Under the pieces are notes generated by a model that did not search any database, was not told the DNA's origin, and saw nothing but the letters and a program-made list of their open reading frames with translations. Shown here piece after piece: positions 21,170 through 30,194 of a stretch of 33,070 nucleotides of DNA. Position 1 is the first letter of the stretch. Each line of letters opens with the position of its first letter. The stretch lies in the UHGV virus genome UHGV-1834275; one strand, written 5' to 3'. This DNA is from a virus. Position numbers and translations under genes: made by a program.

Positions 21170-23098
21170 TTATTTAAAGAATCCTCCACCACGTCTAGAC
21201 GGACGTACTACACGACCTGTTTTTACTGGTGCTGGTTCTTCTTTATTTACTTCTTTATTTAGTCCTTTCTCTTTTTGTTTGGCGTTGAATTCGCGTAGTT
21301 TGCGGAATGGCTGATTACCTAATTTAGATAGATACCAGTGGAAACATATTAAAGCGTAGTTAAGACAATCAAGCGTTTCATTCCTTGCTGAACTAATTTT
21401 CTTAACCCATACCCACGCCCCAGCTTTAATAACTCTCTTCTCACTTGATACCTGAATAAAGTAATCATCTGGTACTGAATGGCTGAAGTGTATTTGTACT
21501 TCACTACTATTACCACTATCCGATACTGCACGGTTTAATAGTTGTCTAATATTACTTTTCCCTAAGTTTACGTTTAGGTTTATTAGACTATGACCACCAG
21601 CCGTAGAGCCTTTAAAGAGTGGGTTAGTATTTGAAGTACCGCCCTTGATTGGTTTAAAGATTGTCGATGCACTACAATAGCGATATACCGTACTGGTTGC
21701 GTTACCGTTCGAACTATCTACAAAACCTGCAAGTACTTTAAGTGGTTTACCGGATACGGTTTTAAAGTTAGTTTGTGAAAATGCTGTTAGCTTATTCCAT
21801 GCGGGAGCCTCTATTTTAGTACAGTCAATGCTATGAATACTGCGATGATCGAGTACATAAAGATTCTTTTCACTTATTCCTAACGTTGTTACTTCAAGGC
21901 GGTCTAACTGTTGGTCTACACCTAGTACGATTCCTTGACAGTCATCCGGCACGGTATCTATATCTATTGAACTATCACGTAGGTTTTCAAGTAATACTAA
22001 ATCATGATCGGTATTCTCTTTATCAATATAAGGAAGTCCTAAGACGTTATTGTAGAATGAGGCTAGATCAAATGTATAATGTGCTTCGGCAAAATCCTGT
22101 ACTATTGATTTGATCGAGTTAATCGGGGAGTATAAACGGCTAATATGATACCCCATGATATCCGTTACTTCTGGTACTGTAGCTATCCATTCACCCTTAC
22201 GTACCATTCTTACACGTTCGGCTTCTGTGATTACATTATTACACTTAGGACATTGTAGTTTTGCTGTCTCTGCATCTGGAATGCGACGACGACCACCATC
22301 AATAATTTTCCAGTCGAATTTAACATTTTCAAATACTAATTCATGTGCATGATCACAATGTGGGCAAGGTACGTAGAACTTCTGTTTATTACTTTGCTCG
22401 TACTGCTGAGTGATTAAATCATTCTCATCAAGTGGTGTAGAACAAACCATAATAAGAGGGTTGCTAAAAGCCTTTGTACGCTGTTCTGCTAGCTTTAGTG
22501 GGTTCCCTTCATCACCATCTGCATCTACGTTAGATATTTCGTCAAGAAAGATACGGGGGGCTGTCAAGCCTCGCAAATTCGCACTACTACCCAATGTTAG
22601 GAAGTACGTAAAAGTACCGTCTAAGTTTTGTTGTGTCTTATCATTATTAGTATAGTTTTTATCATTCTTATTACTGACTAGATTTTTAAGTACTGCACAT
22701 GCTTCGATTACTGATTGCCATTTACCAGTACGAAACTTACTAGTAGTGCTGGCTGTTGCACCTGCGAAAATTAGATTGCTTGGATCATTTGCGAGGAAGT
22801 AGTACATACTATTCTGTAAAACTGTTGTTTTGAGAAGTTGTGCACTGCTCATCAAAACTATTTTTCTAATTCTTGGATTAGTAATGTCATTTATGGGCTT
22901 GTGCTGAAAGGAAAATAACTTTACGCGTTGTCCTTGTAGTTCCCCATCCGGGAATACTAAATTATTCTCTACCCATTCCGCTGGTAGTTGTCGCTTCGGA
23001 GGTAGGATCGACTTCGCCGCCCTCGTTAGTACCTTCATCATCTTCTGGTAGTTGTTCATCCGTGTATGTTCCTTCATATTCATAGCTACCAATTTCAT
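21170..23098 (-). CDS. Terminase large subunit, lambda GpA family
   Basis: LPAEWVENNLVFPDGELQGQRVKLFSFQ...SAQLLKTT parallels the lambda gpA N-terminus (TAVEWADANYYLP...FQ...SAR); C4 zinc-ribbon CPHCDHAHEL...CPKCNNV as in gpA (CPHCGEE...); C-terminal NETLDCLNYAL resembles gpA NEALDCFVYAL. The true start is probably an internal Met, since the ORF overlaps the small-subunit gene by up to 137 nt. Confidence 0.9.
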   Translation of the reverse strand: MKLVAMNMKEHTRMNNYQKMMKVLTRAAKSILPPKRQLPAEWVENNLVFPDGELQGQRVKLFSFQHKPINDITNPRIRKIVLMSSAQLLKTTVLQNSMYYFLANDPSNLIFAGATASTTSKFRTGKWQSVIEACAVLKNLVSNKNDKNYTNNDKTQQNLDGTFTYFLTLGSSANLRGLTAPRIFLDEISNVDADGDEGNPLKLAEQRTKAFSNPLIMVCSTPLDENDLITQQYEQSNKQKFYVPCPHCDHAHELVFENVKFDWKIIDGGRRRIPDAETAKLQCPKCNNVITEAERVRMVRKGEWIATVPEVTDIMGYHISRLYSPINSIKSIVQDFAEAHYTFDLASFYNNVLGLPYIDKENTDHDLVLLENLRDSSIDIDTVPDDCQGIVLGVDQQLDRLEVTTLGISEKNLYVLDHRSIHSIDCTKIEAPAWNKLTAFSQTNFKTVSGKPLKVLAGFVDSSNGNATSTVYRYCSASTIFKPIKGGTSNTNPLFKGSTAGGHSLINLNVNLGKSNIRQLLNRAVSDSGNSSEVQIHFSHSVPDDYFIQVSSEKRVIKAGAWVWVKKISSARNETLDCLNYALICFHWYLSKLGNQPFRKLREFNAKQKEKGLNKEVNKEEPAPVKTGRVVRPSRRGGGFFK

Positions 23099-23534
23099 TT
23101 AATTGATCATCTATTTTTTCCTGTAGTTTGATTTTTAATTCTAATGCGTCTGCTGATTCGAATAATTCAACATAACTTGACGCGGGAATACTTCTTAATA
23201 CTTGGCGTAGTTGGTAGAAGTATTGGGATAAAGTTTGCTGTACTACTGCTACTGGTATTAGCTCGCCGGATTGCTGACGTAATTCCATTTCTTTAATATC
23301 AGCTTCTGCTTCTAACTTACGTAGTGTTGCTTTTTGTATTTGGCCTTTTGTATCACCGCTTCTTAGTGGTTCGATTACGTTTGCAAGTAACCAATCGTCA
23401 ACTAATTTCTTAGGCCAGGTGATATCTAAACCTTTACCAGACCATATACGGCTAACAGTAGAATGCTCTACGCCGAAACGATCCGCGATTTCTTGCCACG
23501 TGTAGCGGGTTCCATCGTCTTTAATTTTTGCCAT
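22962..23534 (-). CDS. Terminase small subunit, Nu1-like (start placed at internal ATG 23534)
   Basis: N-terminal helix-turn-helix (WQEIADRFGVEHSTVSRIW), then Trp-containing and coiled-coil region (LVDDWLLANV...EAEADIKEMELRQQ) as in lambda Nu1; acidic C-terminus; AAGGA about 10 nt upstream of ATG 23534. Located immediately upstream of the GpA-like gene. Confidence 0.7.
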   Translation of the reverse strand: MAKIKDDGTRYTWQEIADRFGVEHSTVSRIWSGKGLDITWPKKLVDDWLLANVIEPLRSGDTKGQIQKATLRKLEAEADIKEMELRQQSGELIPVAVVQQTLSQYFYQLRQVLRSIPASSYVELFESADALELKIKLQEKIDDQLNEIGSYEYEGTYTDEQLPEDDEGTNEGGEVDPTSEATTTSGMGRE

Positions 23535-23763
23535 TTTGTTTAGTCCTTGTTTAGTACAATAAACCTGTACTTTCCTTTTATTTCGTTTTGTTTGTTTTCG
23601 ATTAGAAATCCCACGAATTTTAAATACAATTCGCGGCGAAAACTCGATTTTTTTGTTCTCAATTAGAGAACCTAAAGTTAAAACTTCACTCACGATTTTA
23701 ATTTTTGATTTGTAATAATATTTATATTATCATTGTATTATAAAGTAACAACAAGGACATGTA

Positions 23764-24702
23764 ATGAAACACATAATCCAAACCAGAAGTGTTTTTAAGG
23801 ATATCGAAGACTCTTTATTTAGTGAGTTGCATTCAGCTAAGACAAGTATCAAAATCTGTGTTGCATGGATAAACTTTGAGCTTTTTGAAAATATATTATT
23901 ATCTAAGGCTAAAGAAGGTGTTGAAGTTGAGATATTAGTTAATAATGATTATATCAATACAAAATTTCTTGATAAAATATCTGATAATATAAAACCATTA
24001 ATTAATCTAATTAAAAACCCTATTAGTAACCACTTAATGCATCATAAATTTTGTATCATTGATGATGAAGTTTTGATTACTGGCAGTTATAATTGGTCAA
24101 AAAGAGCACCATATCATTATGAAAATATAATAATCATCCGTAATGATTTCAATCTAATAATGCAATTTAAACATGAGTTTGCAGATTTAAAATACATGGG
24201 TGCAATGCCAAGTACAGAATTTAATGCATTTAAAGTAACCAAAAATCTCAATAGATTTGTTGTTGGCACATATAGTTCATCTGTGGGGATATATGAAACC
24301 GTCACATTGCAGTTATGGGAAATTGATATTAACAACTTAACTTTTGAACGACATGGCGAAATGGATATCCCTTTCTTCAATTATTTATTAGATATTAATA
24401 CTGATGATCATTATCTTATTGATGAAAAAGAAAGGTACATCGATCTATATGATCAAGAGCGTAGACAGATGGAGACTATCCAAAGTCATTTTAGAAGATT
24501 AAATTGTTCAATTCATGCTTATGGAACAGCAATAATAGCGAACGAGAGCGAATACCTTGAAGGTTATGAAGAGCCTATTCGTGTAATTCACTTCAATTGG
24601 ATAGATATGCGATTAAGCAAAGTATTACCCTCTTCTTTGCCCGCAACTATGGAACTTGAAGGATTATGGCACGAAATATATGCTCCAAATGGATATATTT
24701 AA
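23764..24702 (+). CDS. Phospholipase-D-family (single HKD) nuclease with an uncharacterised C-terminal domain
   Basis: Perfect HxK(x)4D(x)6GSxN motif: HHKFCIIDDEVLITGSYN; preceding KICVAWINFELFENILLSKAKEGVEVEILV typical of PLD/Nuc folds; ~170-residue C-terminal region without recognised motifs; AAGGA 7 nt upstream of the ATG. Confidence 0.8.
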   Translation: MKHIIQTRSVFKDIEDSLFSELHSAKTSIKICVAWINFELFENILLSKAKEGVEVEILVNNDYINTKFLDKISDNIKPLINLIKNPISNHLMHHKFCIIDDEVLITGSYNWSKRAPYHYENIIIIRNDFNLIMQFKHEFADLKYMGAMPSTEFNAFKVTKNLNRFVVGTYSSSVGIYETVTLQLWEIDINNLTFERHGEMDIPFFNYLLDINTDDHYLIDEKERYIDLYDQERRQMETIQSHFRRLNCSIHAYGTAIIANESEYLEGYEEPIRVIHFNWIDMRLSKVLPSSLPATMELEGLWHEIYAPNGYI

Positions 24703-24719
24703 ATAATATTCTATAATTA

Positions 24720-25094
24720 ATGAGGAACGGTATTATGTCTAATTATCCTATACCACTTAGCCTTGAATTTAATAGTCAAGATACTGCTAATATCATTTGT
24801 AGTTATCTAGAAAAAAATCATCAAGATTCTATTTTAAAAACCATATTAAATATAGATTTGTCTTTTATTGATTATCGTGCACAATCTTCTAATTACTTTA
24901 TAATTAATGACGTTGAATATATTGGAGATAATAATTATATTTTATATTATAAAATAAACTACTACATTTATAATCTCTGTAAAGATATGGATATTGATGA
25001 TGACTACGAGACTTCGATAAATTTTACATTGAATAATGGATTTTTAGTATTTGATATAATTGATTGTGAAAGAAATATATCAGATGAAATATAG
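24720..25094 (+). CDS. Small acidic hypothetical protein, co-transcribed with the PLD nuclease
   Basis: Starts 17 nt after the PLD stop; Asp/Ile/Tyr/Asn-rich; no recognised motif; followed by a hairpin terminator. Confidence 0.5.
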   Translation: MRNGIMSNYPIPLSLEFNSQDTANIICSYLEKNHQDSILKTILNIDLSFIDYRAQSSNYFIINDVEYIGDNNYILYYKINYYIYNLCKDMDIDDDYETSINFTLNNGFLVFDIIDCERNISDEI

Positions 25095-25158
25095 CCATAT
25101 TTAATTATCACTTAAGGATTTCAACATCAGGATTTAAATTTTAATTATATATAATAGT

Positions 25159-25190
25159 AAAAGCCTAATACTCATCAGTAATAGGCTTTT
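25159..25190. terminator. Bidirectional terminator between convergent accessory genes
   Basis: AAAAGCCTA (25159..25167) / TAGGCTTTT (25182..25190) 9-bp stem with 14-nt loop; A- and T-tracts built into the stem ends. Confidence 0.5.
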
Positions 25191-25197
25191 ACCTAAA

Positions 25198-25617
25198 TTA
25201 TAATTGATTCAATCGATAGATATTAGATGTACTTGAGCCATCGCTATACACCTCTGATATAGTCAGTTTGTTTCCATCCACTTTGTATTTTACTACACTA
25301 TCAGCCGGATCATTTCTCCAACGACCTGAGCTATCTGGATTGTTTGATGCCCACATAACTTGATCATCAATCAGTTTGCACTTGATAGCCCATCTTGTGC
25401 TGTCATCTTTACGTATGTAATGGACATAGGCTACATCAGATTGAATCTTATCAAGCTTCATTATTTTATGATCTCGCCCAAACATAGATGCAGCCGCCGC
25501 TTTGCAGATCTGACCAACATTAGCTTCCGCTGCGTAGAGTGAAGAACTGAACAATAATGGCACAATCACTAATAACTTTATCATCGCATATCGTCTCGTA
25601 GTAAAAATTAATTTCAC
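25198..25617 (-). CDS. Secreted/periplasmic protein with N-terminal signal peptide
   Basis: MIKLLVIVPLLFSSSLYAAEA has the n/h/c pattern of a Sec signal peptide with an A-x-A site; the track start is GTG at 25617 with AAGGA upstream, and ATG 25584 is an alternative. Mature part has paired Cys residues; no catalytic motif. Confidence 0.55.
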   Translation of the reverse strand: MKLIFTTRRYAMIKLLVIVPLLFSSSLYAAEANVGQICKAAAASMFGRDHKIMKLDKIQSDVAYVHYIRKDDSTRWAIKCKLIDDQVMWASNNPDSSGRWRNDPADSVVKYKVDGNKLTISEVYSDGSSTSNIYRLNQL

Positions 25618-25618
25618 C

Positions 25619-26344
25619 TTATTTCCTTAATAACTTTTTTAATTCCTCAACTGTCTTCATTTCTTTTCCAATATGAATCATTGCATGACAGTTTGCACAT
25701 AAAGGTATAAGATCTTCAATTGGGTCAATCTTATAGCGTTTACCAATAGTATGTAGTGGCACTATATGATGAACATGAATATAATTTTTTCCGTGACTTC
25801 CATACACTTCTTCAAAATTAAAACCACAGACACCACAACTCAAACCATGTTTATCGATACATTCTTTTCTAGCCTTTGGATCTCTCTCATAGTACGTAGC
25901 AATCCTTTGATGCTTTTCACCTTCATAGTATTCACTTTCTATTTCAGGTGTGAATGAATAGTAATCTTCATCGGTGGCATACCAATCTCCATCTTTTTTA
26001 GTAAGATATTTTCGTACTATTTTCTTTTCAAAATGTTTAATCCTAGCAGCACCATTTTCAGTTGTTTTCTCATGCCTAGTCTGGCTAAAGGTGAAAAGAC
26101 TATACCCTTCATGTAAAATTTTATCTATGTGTTCGATAGATTGTGTATAACCATTTTTTTTGTGTCCATTTACATTTTCACGCCAACTGCTAGCCAAGAT
26201 TAAAACTTTCTTACCATCATCTGATCTAAGATCTTCCCAAGCTCCAAAAATTATTTTTTTGTTGATCTCATCAATAAATGACCAACTCCAGTTATCATTT
26301 TTACATGTAGCACCCAAAGAACGCATGAACTCTGTTCGGGACAT
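25619..26344 (-). CDS. HNH endonuclease (McrA-type HNH) with an N-terminal domain of unknown function
   Basis: C-terminus CGVCGFNFEEVYGSHGKNYIHVHHIVPLHTIGKRYKIDPIEDLIPLCANCHAMIH matches the McrA-type HNH/zinc-ribbon pattern (C..CG...HH..PL...G....N...LC.NCH...H); N-terminal ~170 residues show no recognised motif. Confidence 0.8.
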   Translation of the reverse strand: MSRTEFMRSLGATCKNDNWSWSFIDEINKKIIFGAWEDLRSDDGKKVLILASSWRENVNGHKKNGYTQSIEHIDKILHEGYSLFTFSQTRHEKTTENGAARIKHFEKKIVRKYLTKKDGDWYATDEDYYSFTPEIESEYYEGEKHQRIATYYERDPKARKECIDKHGLSCGVCGFNFEEVYGSHGKNYIHVHHIVPLHTIGKRYKIDPIEDLIPLCANCHAMIHIGKEMKTVEELKKLLRK

Positions 26345-26382
26345 TTTTCATCCTTAAAATATGTGACCTACATCACATGAAA

Positions 26383-26463
26383 CTATCGACTGTAGGAGGT
26401 TTCTATCCTTCGTAAAGCTAACAAACCTACCCAAAGTAGATAGAAACCTCCTACAATCGATAG
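26383..26463. repeat. 25-bp inverted repeat (one mismatch) with 31-nt spacer in a divergent intergenic region
   Basis: CTATCGACTGTAGGAGGTTTCTATC (26383..26407) and GATAGAAACCTCCTACAATCGATAG (26439..26463) are reverse complements except for one position. Confidence 0.75.
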
Positions 26464-26547
26464 TGTATGTGTGTTCCTTTTGATGGTAAAGTATTAATAT
26501 AGTGTTACCTAGACTGGGTGTACATATAATCAATATTTGGGTTTGAT

Positions 26548-27258
26548 ATGCTTAATCTCACTAAATGTAATTTACTTTTGATCGGCACTGTAATAACTCT
26601 ATTACTGATAGCTATTCTTGTAGGTATAAAAATACTATTCTCCGATTCTAATCCAGATCTAGGCAGCTTAGCAGATTGGATCAGTTCTGTATCCGCAATA
26701 GGGACTCTTGGTGTTGCCTGGTTAGCTTATAGTAAAGCTGATGACTACATTGACAAAAAAGCTTCGGAAAGAGGAATTGATATCCTTGTCAATATGGTAA
26801 CTGAATCATTCGTTGCTTATTTCAACTCACTAAATGAAACTAATTTCCATGCTTCAAAACTTGAAAATAAAATGATATTGATTGGCTTGGTTGATGAAAA
26901 AGTAGATTGCAATATTGAACTACAATCATTAAGAGAAAAAATCATAACTCTCTTCGAAAATAGTCATCAAATAGACAAAGATTTTATAAAAATGAAAATA
27001 ATGAAAATATCAAAACCCAGTGATATTTTCTACGATCCAGTAACTAGCGATGATACATTGCAAGCGTTAAAATTAGCATTTCATAAACTGAACACTGAAA
27101 TTTGTGAGAATGAAAATCAATACAACATTAATAATGATTTACTTAGCGAAAATATCAACTTTATTAAAAACACTACCGAAAAGTTAGCCCATGATATTCG
27201 CAAACAGTTCTTTACCTCGCCGAATACTTATAAAGATTATTTTGGAAATCTGTCTTAA
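26548..27258 (+). CDS. Membrane protein with two N-terminal TM helices; paralogue of 779..1519
   Basis: LLLIGTVITLLLIAILVGIKILF then DLGSLADWISSVSAIGTLGVAWLAYSK; shares the GSLADW(L/I)SS loop motif with 779..1519; soluble C-terminal domain diverged. Confidence 0.6.
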   Translation: MLNLTKCNLLLIGTVITLLLIAILVGIKILFSDSNPDLGSLADWISSVSAIGTLGVAWLAYSKADDYIDKKASERGIDILVNMVTESFVAYFNSLNETNFHASKLENKMILIGLVDEKVDCNIELQSLREKIITLFENSHQIDKDFIKMKIMKISKPSDIFYDPVTSDDTLQALKLAFHKLNTEICENENQYNINNDLLSENINFIKNTTEKLAHDIRKQFFTSPNTYKDYFGNLS

Positions 27259-27303
27259 ATTATACGCTATCAAATATTCCATCAACATAAACAAGGAAAG
27301 TAG

Positions 27304-28002
27304 ATGACTACTCTCACTAGAACTTATAATTTACCAAATGAGCTAGTTGAACATTTTTCAAATAACATTGTCTATTTCGAAAAACTTTTGTCTAAGGATT
27401 TTTCTGACTTAAATGTTAATGTAGCACCAGAAGACATTAAGAAAATAGAAAAATCTTTCGAAGTATCACATAGAATACGTGATTTCGAAATCAATCTGTA
27501 TTGGCAAAGACTGAACTTCCTTTGGGCCATTACAGCATTGCTATTTGCTGGATGGGGAACATTGATCTTTAAAATCATCGAATTCAATGGAGGGGAAGCA
27601 CCTTATATTATATTTGCCGCCTTATCATTTCTCTCACTTATAGGTGGGATTGTAACTATATTCACAAGCTTTATCATTGAGGCAGGTAAGCATTGGCAAA
27701 AGGTTTGGGAGTTTCATGTTCACGCTCTTGAACCTTTTGTATCAGGTCATTTATATGCAATTCAGTTTTCTTATAAAAATAAAAAAAAGGCATCTATAAG
27801 TAGAAGCGTAGAAACTTTCAATTATGCTTTGCTGTTTCTTTGGGCATGTTCAGCAGTATTCGCCGCAATCATCCCTTCACAAATAGGGAACGGTCTTGCA
27901 GGCATTATCCAATTAGTTATTTCTCTTCTTATAGTTGGTGCTTTTGTTTATATACGCAACTCTGTTACTAAAAAGGAGTCTATTAAAATTCAGCTTGATT
28001 AA
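27304..28002 (+). CDS. Integral membrane protein (about 4 TM helices) with ~65-residue soluble N-terminus
   Basis: AAGGAAAG ribosome-binding site; hydrophobic segments LNFLWAITALLFAGWGTLIF, YIIFAALSFLSLIGGIVTIFTSFII, FNYALLFLWACSAVFAAII, LAGIIQLVISLLIVGAFVYI; 45 nt downstream of the 2TM gene, same strand; followed by a terminator. Confidence 0.6.
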   Translation: MTTLTRTYNLPNELVEHFSNNIVYFEKLLSKDFSDLNVNVAPEDIKKIEKSFEVSHRIRDFEINLYWQRLNFLWAITALLFAGWGTLIFKIIEFNGGEAPYIIFAALSFLSLIGGIVTIFTSFIIEAGKHWQKVWEFHVHALEPFVSGHLYAIQFSYKNKKKASISRSVETFNYALLFLWACSAVFAAIIPSQIGNGLAGIIQLVISLLIVGAFVYIRNSVTKKESIKIQLD

Positions 28003-28022
28003 TGTAGCATAAGGCATCTACT

Positions 28023-28232
28023 TTAAGCAGCCCCATAATGGGGCTTTCTTTTTTTAGCATTTACTTTTTGAATGCTCATAAGAATCTCACGTACCTTTGC
28101 TTCATTATCACCTGCATCATATAGTACCCCATCTTTCCAGTACTGACCCAGTAGTTCTACTTTTGGTAAGCCCGGCATTGCCCTTACTCCATCTTCGTGA
28201 TCAATATGTAATTCAAGTGATCCAATAATCAT
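28023..28232 (-). CDS. Small hypothetical protein (questionable)
   Basis: ORF only; its last ~10 codons are encoded by the plus-strand terminator hairpin and T-run. Confidence 0.3.
   Translation of the reverse strand: MIIGSLELHIDHEDGVRAMPGLPKVELLGQYWKDGVLYDAGDNEAKVREILMSIQKVNAKKRKPHYGAA
28029..28055 (+). terminator. Rho-independent terminator of the 26548..28002 membrane-protein operon
   Basis: AGCCCCA (28029..28035) / TGGGGCT (28039..28045) stem, 3-nt loop, then TTCTTTTTTT. Confidence 0.6.
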
Positions 28233-29708: not shown

Positions 29709-30194
29709 TTAGTTGTCTTTTGCAACCTTTGTATATGTCTGTCTATGTGTACTTCTATTGTACTTTTCATTCATGAATAGCGTGATATTGATACATGACA
29801 TTCCACCAGTGTATAACGCCTTTACTTCATCTTTTTGTACTGGTGTTAGACGTGGTTCATTTTGTTTCTTACGTACTGCCTTACATGAATTTTCACTATA
29901 TGTAATCCACTGCAAATTAGAAATATTGTTGTCTCGTTTATCACTATTGATATTATCTACAACTAATCTTTTATTTGTTTGGGGTTTACTTAGAAATGTT
30001 TCTGCTACGAGTCTGTGTGTCTCTATCGGATATGATTTAGATTTCCCATCCTCATAAACAGTTAAAGTAACTTTATAGTACCCATTACTTTTACTATAAC
30101 TCTGTGTTAGATAATTACCCGTTTTAGTATTGCGTACTTCTCCGTTACTACTTACTTCATAATTTACATATTGTGTTTGTTTCCATAATGTCAT
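29709..30194 (-). CDS. HNH homing-endonuclease-like protein (NUMOD4-like N-terminus plus HNH_3-like core)
   Basis: YEVSSNGEVRN...NGYYKV...HRLVAETF...VDNINSDKRDNNISNLQWITYSEN matches the phage free-standing HNH endonuclease pattern (Y.VS..G.V...G....h.lva..f.....v.H.d..k.nN...NL.w.t..eN), but with Asn where the first His is expected. Confidence 0.7.
   Translation of the reverse strand: MTLWKQTQYVNYEVSSNGEVRNTKTGNYLTQSYSKSNGYYKVTLTVYEDGKSKSYPIETHRLVAETFLSKPQTNKRLVVDNINSDKRDNNISNLQWITYSENSCKAVRKKQNEPRLTPVQKDEVKALYTGGMSCINITLFMNEKYNRSTHRQTYTKVAKDN

Follow-up and report, generated by a model that had tools for sequence, protein, structure and literature searches.

The DNA analyzed here, referred to as the window, is the whole 33,070-nucleotide (nt) stretch of the virus genome UHGV-1834275, a temperate phage with a lambda-type GpA terminase and a serine integrase/recombinase of 632 amino acids (aa), and the subject of this report is an island of six genes within it (23764–28002), whose proteins are numbered P1 to P6. 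To the left of the island lie minus-strand genes for a GpA-type large terminase (TerL) and for the small terminase subunit (TerS; phrog_57, 4e-19), which flanks the island, and to the right lies a minus-strand run of small genes, the last of which encodes the 632-aa serine recombinase. The six genes are arranged in three transcription units, P1–P2 (+), P4–P3 (−), and P5–P6 (+), oriented against or apart from the flanking operons. A first-pass annotation, made from the letters alone, had described six genes unrelated to morphogenesis next to a terminase gene at this position; all six open reading frames are real and are also called in public assemblies, all six proteins are conserved in a distant phage (L023), and the terminase neighbor was confirmed as the small subunit.

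The island had been judged AT-rich by eye, and its GC content is 31.6%, against 37.7% for the rest of the window, with the GC minimum of the 33 kb (windows of 4.2 kb) starting at 23551. A bidirectional hairpin (25157–25192) lies between the convergent P1–P2 and P4–P3 units, with 16-nt arms that are 94% complementary and fold z values of −3.4 on the plus strand and −4.5 on the minus strand; it failed the T-run rule of the terminator scan. The P5–P6 unit is ended by a GC-rich hairpin with a T-run (28029–28055, +; 7 pairs, 5 of them GC, then TTCTTTTTTT), which is common to the convergent small-gene operon, and no terminator was found between P5 and P6. Each unit had been said to end in a hairpin of its own; the hairpins at 25157–25192 and 28029–28055 exist, and it is these two that serve the three units.

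The divergent control region between P4 and P5 contains an inverted repeat (26382–26464) with 26-nt arms (26382–26407 and 26439–26464) and a 31-nt loop, whose sequence is unique in the window. The repeat is retained in three other phage variants, and across the 4 variants 7 of the 26 pairs are changed on both sides, a number reached by 0 of 500 shuffles, with slid controls giving 0–1. No Rfam family matches it, the E. coli and L103 homologs of the HNH gene (P4) lack it upstream, and a 14-mer scan for further copies returned chiefly chance matches, L225 and L108 alone being useful. The repeat would serve the HNH mRNA as a leader hairpin or else act as a palindromic operator.

P1 (23764–24702, +, 312 aa) consists of a single-HKD nuclease domain of the PLD superfamily (residues ~1–145) and a conserved C-terminal domain (residues ~150–312) whose fold was not recognized and which matches no solved structure. 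Both nuclease domains called by the first-pass annotation were recovered above their Pfam cut-offs, one PLDc_2 domain in P1 (72 bits, cut-off 27) and an HNH domain in P4 (33.9 bits, cut-off 21.4). In P1, residues H93, K95, D100, G107, S108, N110, W111, E120, and N121 are invariant and supply the HxK(x)4D and GSxN motifs and the downstream E/N, so that P1 has an intact catalytic set in a nuclease-type fold; its nearest relatives by sequence and by fold are the nucleases Nuc, NucT, Zucchini, and the nuclease domain of SauUSI, not lipid enzymes. As in these proteins and in BfiI and NgoAVII, a single HKD domain carries the full H-x-K-x4-D ... GSxNW ... EN set, and as in BfiI and NgoAVII the N-terminal PLD domain is followed by a further C-terminal domain, which in those two enzymes serves DNA recognition. 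P1 differs from Nuc of pKM101 in having no signal peptide (neither a signal peptide nor a hydrophobic segment was found), and from the PLD-type restriction enzymes and SauUSI in having no methyltransferase or helicase partner. A BfiI/NgoAVII-type identity, with a B3-like domain and a methyltransferase, was rejected. The PADLOC models for DrmC of DISARM, MkoC/MkoB of Mokosh, and DpdK of Dpd match P1 over the PLD domain only (1.9e-8 to 6.5e-5), and membership in these systems was likewise rejected, DrmA/B, MkoA, and the dpd cluster being absent from the window.

The two-domain P1 family extends to Klebsiella, Pectobacterium, Enterobacter, Vibrio, Pseudomonas, Burkholderia, Acinetobacter, and Aeromonas, and most of its members have a Cys/His cluster opening the C-terminal domain, which the phage subgroup containing P1 has lost. 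Outside the phage lineage of the window, P1 homologs occur beside defense genes. In Acinetobacter (L015/L029), a homolog with both domains lies 44 nt upstream of a homolog of PD-T7-5 (7e-124), with which it may form a two-gene operon; PD-T7-5 is listed as a PD-(D/E)XK defense protein (PMC10952713). In Pseudomonas, a SIR2_2 gene with ThsA/Dsr-like matches precedes the P1 homolog. A P5-like gene (216 aa) was also seen a few genes upstream of the PLD homolog in L029.

P2 (24720–25094, +, 124 aa) starts 17 nt past P1 in the same orientation, with an alternative start at 24735 used in public calls (119 aa), and is small and acidic (pI 4.05, with 20 acidic residues against 7 basic ones), its gene having 22.9% GC. 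Its one family match is phrog_13663 (6e-5), to which no function is assigned there. The small partner ascribed to the PLD nuclease is thus a real gene and not a conserved partner of the family: P2 was found only in window-type and L023-type islands, and it was rejected as an obligatory partner, being absent from the PLD loci of Pectobacterium, Enterobacter, Klebsiella, Pseudomonas, and Acinetobacter.

P4 (25619–26344, −, 241 aa) carries its HNH domain in the C-terminal third, preceded by a conserved N-terminal beta-barrel, and its closest relative by sequence in the PDB is EcoKMcrA. The full-length family (~245 aa) is 44–50% identical across Proteobacteria and Bacteroidota, and some sources name its members 5-methylcytosine-specific restriction protein A; P4 also matches the PADLOC Type IV model at the domain level. 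Among 54 homologs, C170, C173, C216, C219, H192, H193, N218, and H220 are invariant, giving the conserved His/Asn and the Cys4 zinc site of an HNH beta-beta-alpha-Me core; both the HNH chemistry and the family placement of P4 are established. The N-terminal part has motifs of its own, strongly conserved or invariant (GATCxNWxWSWSF, IIFGAW, GYxQSxEH), and weak fold matches suggest an SRA-like barrel that may read a modified base (comparison figures: ScoMcrA SBD-SRA 5.7, TagI 5.2, SUVH5 SRA 4.8, PvuRts1I 4.0, LpnPI 3.8, UHRF1 3.7). P4 is probably a stand-alone Type IV modification-dependent restriction enzyme of known kind. Like EcoKMcrA, TagI, and ScoMcrA it has no methyltransferase partner, none of the six island genes encoding a methyltransferase, and like McrA, which is carried by the e14 prophage, it is prophage-borne. 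It differs from these enzymes in that its N-terminal domain has no detectable sequence similarity to their reader domains, in the conserved motifs of its family, and in being co-transcribed with a signal-peptide protein, P3. A 68%-identical homolog in E. coli stands alone in a small serine-recombinase islet that is not phage; a DNA methyltransferase gene lies two genes away in that islet. P4 is absent from most of the related phages described below.

P3 (25198–25617, −, 139 aa) is a small basic protein with two Cys, and from its probable start at 25584, used in public calls (128 aa), it lies 34 nt downstream of P4. Family searches with P3 gave nothing above noise. A signal-like hydrophobic stretch at residues 10–30, followed by AAE, suggests that it is probably periplasmic. 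The earlier pairing of the HNH protein with a secreted protein is borne out as far as this signal-like segment goes; as a general HNH partner P3 was rejected, being absent beside the P4 homologs of E. coli and L108.

P5 (26548–27258, +, 236 aa) and P6 (27304–28002, +, 232 aa), separated by 45 nt, had been described as a pair of proteins with two and four transmembrane segments, which agrees with four strong hydrophobic segments in P6 and, in P5 and its family alignment, a strong N-terminal segment plus a weaker one. P6 is an inner-membrane protein of the 8xMP family (PF24838, 1.3e-16, 61.1 bits against a cut-off of 30; residues 51–187 on profile positions 3–134 of 136), with H56, E62, R69, W131, W135, E136, E143, S147, G148, and Y151 invariant. 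The first-pass annotation could match the domain combinations of the island to nothing known; this does not stand for P4, which fits the McrA-like Type IV enzymes, and the 8xMP match of P6 had also escaped it. Sources label P6-type proteins, 63–100% identical, as 'RipA family octameric membrane protein'; full-text literature searches did not find the source of this name or of '8xMP', and it could not be established that the 'RipA' in it is the Francisella protein. The comparison of P6 with SLATT_5 gave 14.4 bits (cut-off 29.5, E 0.025), a hint of distant similarity only. No structure related by sequence to P5 or P6 was found in the PDB.

P5 has no family in the databases searched. Its homologs include proteins encoded next to 8xMP in related phages and another P5-like gene of the window (779–1519, −, 246 aa, GC 27.9%), which lies at the other end of the prophage, adjoins the lysis genes, and matches P5 (BLASTP 6.6e-5) as well as other family members; this paralog has no 8xMP neighbor. 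Proteins of the P5-like family share two N-terminal membrane helices with a G-S-x-x-D-W motif; the ~150 C-terminal residues beyond them can barely be aligned, and mean pairwise identity is 31.7% in the N-terminal part versus 13.6% in the C-terminal part. Exhaustive HMMER searches gave 135 P5-like clusters, nearly all of 200–280 aa and matched mainly over the first ~90 residues. The Pseudocitrobacter ortholog of P5 is named 'Phage abortive infection protein' in UniRef. An AbiC/putAbiC identity was rejected, as P5 and seven family members have no Pfam or PADLOC match even at E <= 10; a holin or lysis module was rejected as well, since P5 and P6 have no holin match in PHROGs or Pfam, and the holin-like, lysozyme, and Rz-like genes lie at 1580–3985, 20 kb from the island.

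The P5-like and 8xMP families are genetically linked by adjacency, tandem diversification, and fusion. In a scan of IMG/VR for 8xMP relatives, 16 of 50 contigs had P5-like genes that adjoin an 8xMP gene and share its strand, a count drawn, like the other neighborhood counts, from loci found by homology to island genes and including related, non-independent contigs; these 16 contigs have one to four P5-like genes per 8xMP gene, placed upstream, downstream, or on both sides, and the 8xMP proteins of the set are 23 to 100% identical to P6. Two fusions of Serratia type, P0451 (461 aa, from a complete Serratia plymuthica genome) and P0479 (478 aa), join an 8xMP domain (residues 15–216, 4e-52) to a complete P5-like protein (residues 241–455, 3e-37), and the two have the 8xMP half in common and differ in the P5-like variable part. 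Fusion order and the positive-inside rule suggest that the variable C-terminal domain of P5 is cytoplasmic.

Other 8xMP genes have other partners. A two-gene insert of 8xMP and DUF2971 occurs inside the tail operons of Enterobacter prophages; in the lambda-like prophages L112–L114 and L052 it lies between the tape-measure and minor-tail genes, with DUF2971 (282 aa) preceding 8xMP (235 aa, 63% identical to P6), and AbiJ-, DndB-, and KAP-NTPase-like genes were seen nearby. In other phages 8xMP follows Drt2 (5e-205), an HEPN-like protein, UmuC, lambda P, or DnaB, which are typical moron positions, and Drt2 and PDC-S15 adjoin 8xMP or P5-like genes in other viral contigs.

In public assemblies the element is inserted in enterobacterial chromosomes, with the bssR/yliI side on one flank and rimO on the other. 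A protein identical to P1 is recorded in 135 blocks of these assemblies, and by source names the hosts of the element are E. coli, Shigella sonnei, several Citrobacter species, Pseudocitrobacter faecalis, and Enterobacter kobei. Every contig with an identical TerL, 14 in all, contains the island, and in two decayed prophage copies, L004 (CP126295.1) and L007 (CP133814.1), in which structural genes are deleted or interrupted by insertion sequences, all six island genes and the serine recombinase are intact. Among 50,697 deposited phage genomes, megablast with the island region returned no match and the top TerL match is 36% identical; in complete E. coli genomes the HNH gene is the sole match (75% nucleotide identity), and it lies in another islet.

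The history of the island can be read from more distant relatives. The metagenomic phage L023 has the same six-gene block in the same place next to distant structural proteins: identity to the window is 46% for TerL, 41% for capsid, 45% for portal, and 30% for TerS, and 79% for P1, 75% for P2, 88–92% for P3, 95% for P4, and 87.5% for P6, with P5 at 53% over its first 74 residues only. As the island is 75–95% identical while the structural proteins are 30–47% identical, the block was exchanged horizontally, and the C-terminus of P5 was replaced.

The wider lineage was compared through members whose TerL is 43–49% identical to that of the window. The first gene after terS is a P1 homolog every time (41–52% identical), and the slot beyond it varies (L021, L026, L027, L028, and L108 included). 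The slot of L026 contains a homolog of UzuA, of the Uzume system (PADLOC 5e-53); that of L028 a 308-aa protein and an 8xMP gene; that of L108 a P5-like gene, a 245-aa protein, a P4 homolog, and a GTPase; and that of Pectobacterium phages an LprI-domain protein, genes of no assigned function, an 8xMP gene, and P5-like genes. One L108 slot protein looks GIY-YIG-like, judged by eye from its sequence. These contents, which turn over between relatives and include defense genes, support the slot as a variable-cargo hotspot that holds known or candidate defense genes in related phages. The same slot of a related prophage of Kluyvera ascorbata (L012/L051) has two tandem 8xMP paralogs, one of 232 aa (72% identical to P6) followed by one of 326 aa with extra C-terminal hydrophobic segments.

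Several further features of the window were recorded. The segment 28623–30273 contains a gene for a 179-aa protein and a NUMOD4/HNH_3 gene, and in L001, L005, L006, and L008, which are otherwise 98% identical, a pair of genes for 121-aa and 645-aa proteins takes its place; since this segment is replaced in near-identical prophages, it constitutes a second variable slot, in the early region. Homing-endonuclease-like genes lie at 2769–3206 (−) among the lysis genes (phrog_7363/phrog_447) and at 29709–30194 (−) among the early genes (NUMOD4 and HNH_3). The longest TerL open reading frame (642 aa, 21170–23098) overlaps that of terS (22962–23693) by 137 nt, and public calls give a TerL of 560 or 600 aa; the TerL start is uncertain because these calls pick shorter starts than the longest frame.

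Taken together, the block is best explained as hotspot cargo, a mosaic of moron modules most likely protecting the lysogen, and with it the prophage, from other phages or mobile DNA, a reading to which a probability of about 0.6 is assigned. The first-pass annotation had proposed a defense or exclusion cluster; the slot does carry defense-type cargo, and it is context that supports the defense reading, while the island itself is a mosaic of at least three independent modules and not one cluster or system. The evidence fits modules that would act independently and be expressed in the lysogen, with at least some of them anti-phage. The hotspot, which has terS on one side and the early/lysogeny genes on the other, would gather such cargo by recombination. 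Of the modules, P4 would read a modified base of invading DNA with its N-terminal SRA-like barrel and then cut the invader with its zinc-bound C-terminal HNH domain, needing no methyltransferase, as proposed by analogy with McrA, TagI, and ScoMcrA. P1 would cleave nucleic acid as a dimer, its two chains building a single HKD active site on the pattern of Nuc, Zucchini, and BfiI, with the conserved C-terminal domain setting the target or gating activity; the target, the control, and the role in defense are all put forward here as presumptive. P5 and P6 may form an inner-membrane complex in which the hypervariable cytoplasmic C-terminal domain of P5 would recognize a phage component and a ring of P6 would act as effector, either by membrane depolarization (abortive infection, RexA/RexB-like) or by a block of DNA entry (superinfection exclusion); oligomeric state, topology, sensing, and pore activity of the pair are presumptive in the same way. 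The acidic P2 and the probably periplasmic P3 would be accessory passengers.

Parallels with known systems are partial. Lambdoid morons offer one parallel to a defense hotspot, and hotspots that collect defense genes are reportedly also found in the phages P2 and P4 (not the proteins so numbered here). The slot resembles such defense hotspots of temperate phages and satellites in its fixed position, conserved backbone, cargo turnover, and known systems (Uzume in L026), and differs in the phage lineage and the position (terS to early genes), and in one constant gene, the PLD gene, at the slot edge. In lambda, RexA and RexB act as a sensor and a four-helix membrane channel in abortive infection; P5–P6 is likewise a two-gene prophage module apart from the lytic genes, with one four-helix polytopic inner-membrane partner and another with a cytoplasmic domain of ~150–200 aa. 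No sequence relationship of P5 or P6 to the Rex proteins was detected (PADLOC, Pfam, PHROG), and the putative sensor P5 differs in being membrane-anchored, hypervariable, often present in 2–4 tandem copies, and fusable to its partner. In a preprint (bioRxiv 10.1101/2021.11.02.466367), Csx28, a small membrane protein that acts as the membrane effector of Type VI-B CRISPR, is said to form an octameric pore, and to that extent it offers an analogy for the possible action of an 8xMP ring; the two families are regarded as unrelated, and 'octameric' is for 8xMP a database name only.

Several points weigh against the reading as defense cargo. No PADLOC model matches P2, P3, P5, or P6, and P1 and P4 are matched at the domain level only. 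The neighborhood counts are a biased sample, because the loci were found via homology to the same genes. The octameric state of 8xMP comes from a database name whose source was not traced. P5-like arrays without 8xMP and 8xMP without P5-like genes both occur, so that the pairing is frequent and not obligatory. Finally, PLD identity (41–52%) tracks TerL identity (43–49%) in L017, L021, L026, L027, and L028, which fits a phage-serving gene equally well.

The last point bears on the main rival, above all for P1, in which the island genes would work for the phage itself during lytic growth, the PLD protein degrading DNA of the host or of competitors or processing that of the phage, the HNH protein aiding terminase cutting, and the membrane proteins tuning lysis or DNA ejection. 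A phage-benefit role is plausible for P1, since the PLD gene is constant, always adjoins terS, and diverges in step with the terminase; the presence of the island in 14 of 14 identical-TerL contigs points the same way, and HNH proteins beside terminase genes reportedly help packaging in phages of the HK97 type. As an account of the whole island it is nevertheless unlikely: transcription of the units runs away from the late operon and they have hairpins of their own, the GpA terminase already has a nuclease domain, P4 is missing from most lineage members and belongs to a stand-alone family that extends across bacterial phyla and also occupies a non-phage E. coli islet, lysis genes of the holin, lysozyme, and Rz types lie elsewhere, decayed prophages without structural genes retain the island, and homologs of P1 with both domains adjoin defense genes outside phages. 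The acidity of P2 suggests a different service to the phage for part of the block, counter-defense, in which P2 would shield the phage from host restriction by mimicking DNA or inhibiting a nuclease, and the target destroyed by P1 would be a component or signal of host immunity. Strong acidity is typical of mimics of the Ocr/ArdA type, P2 has no functional family assignment, and the slot is near the genome end; set against this, P2 is limited to window-type and L023-type islands, it matches no anti-restriction family in Pfam or PHROGs, and the neighboring cargo of related slots is of defense type, which leaves counter-defense quite improbable.

Still less probable is envelope or competitor cargo of the polymorphic toxin/immunity kind, comprising a phospholipase-type toxin, a secreted factor, and membrane immunity proteins, even though the N-terminus of P3 is signal-like, the equivalent position in Pectobacterium phages is taken by a protein with an LprI lysozyme-inhibitor domain, tandem diversified small membrane proteins resemble immunity-gene arrays, and a PAAR gene lies near the Acinetobacter PLD homolog. 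P1 has neither a signal peptide nor a hydrophobic segment, and its single HKD and nearest relatives (Nuc, NucT, Zucchini, SauUSI) are those of nucleases, not lipases; no toxin-delivery genes were found in the window, and the topology of the fusions predicts a cytoplasmic P5-like variable domain. That the genes are selfish or decaying passengers, the HNH protein being a homing endonuclease and the others hitch-hiking junk reading frames, is the least probable of these explanations: the window does have two further homing-endonuclease-like genes, and AT-rich composition fits a recent foreign origin, but six frames intact across many hosts, catalytic residues invariant over deep divergence, a P4 architecture of McrA type and not of an intron or intein endonuclease, and 75–95% identity of the island between phages otherwise 30–47% identical all speak against it.

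Beyond the reading of the island as hotspot cargo, a bolder proposal is held tentatively, with the odds somewhat against it: that P5-like and 8xMP proteins form an undescribed modular membrane anti-phage system in enterobacterial prophages and, separately, that the PLD nuclease, its C-terminal domain being unmatched, is a new single-gene defense nuclease. In such a system a four-helix 8xMP ring would be the effector and one to four diversified P5-like proteins, anchored in the membrane and hypervariable in their cytoplasmic domains, would be interchangeable sensors, sometimes swapped for DUF2971 or other soluble partners.

What is new in the island is the linkage of P5-like and 8xMP genes and the C-terminal domain of the PLD protein, P4 being of a known kind. 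New immune systems have repeatedly come from prophage hotspots, and the phage lineage of this one, to which none of the deposited phage genomes searched is close, is nonetheless spread in Escherichia, Shigella, Citrobacter, Enterobacter, and Pseudocitrobacter. It offers a widespread McrA-like family for testing of the reader domain and its specificity, a conserved PLD nuclease with a C-terminal domain that has no structural precedent, and, through the P5-like/8xMP linkage, a function-directed handle on the otherwise uncharacterized 8xMP family. If the two membrane proteins are indeed a sensor–effector pair, nature would have supplied, in their hypervariable domains, a library of modules for phage recognition.

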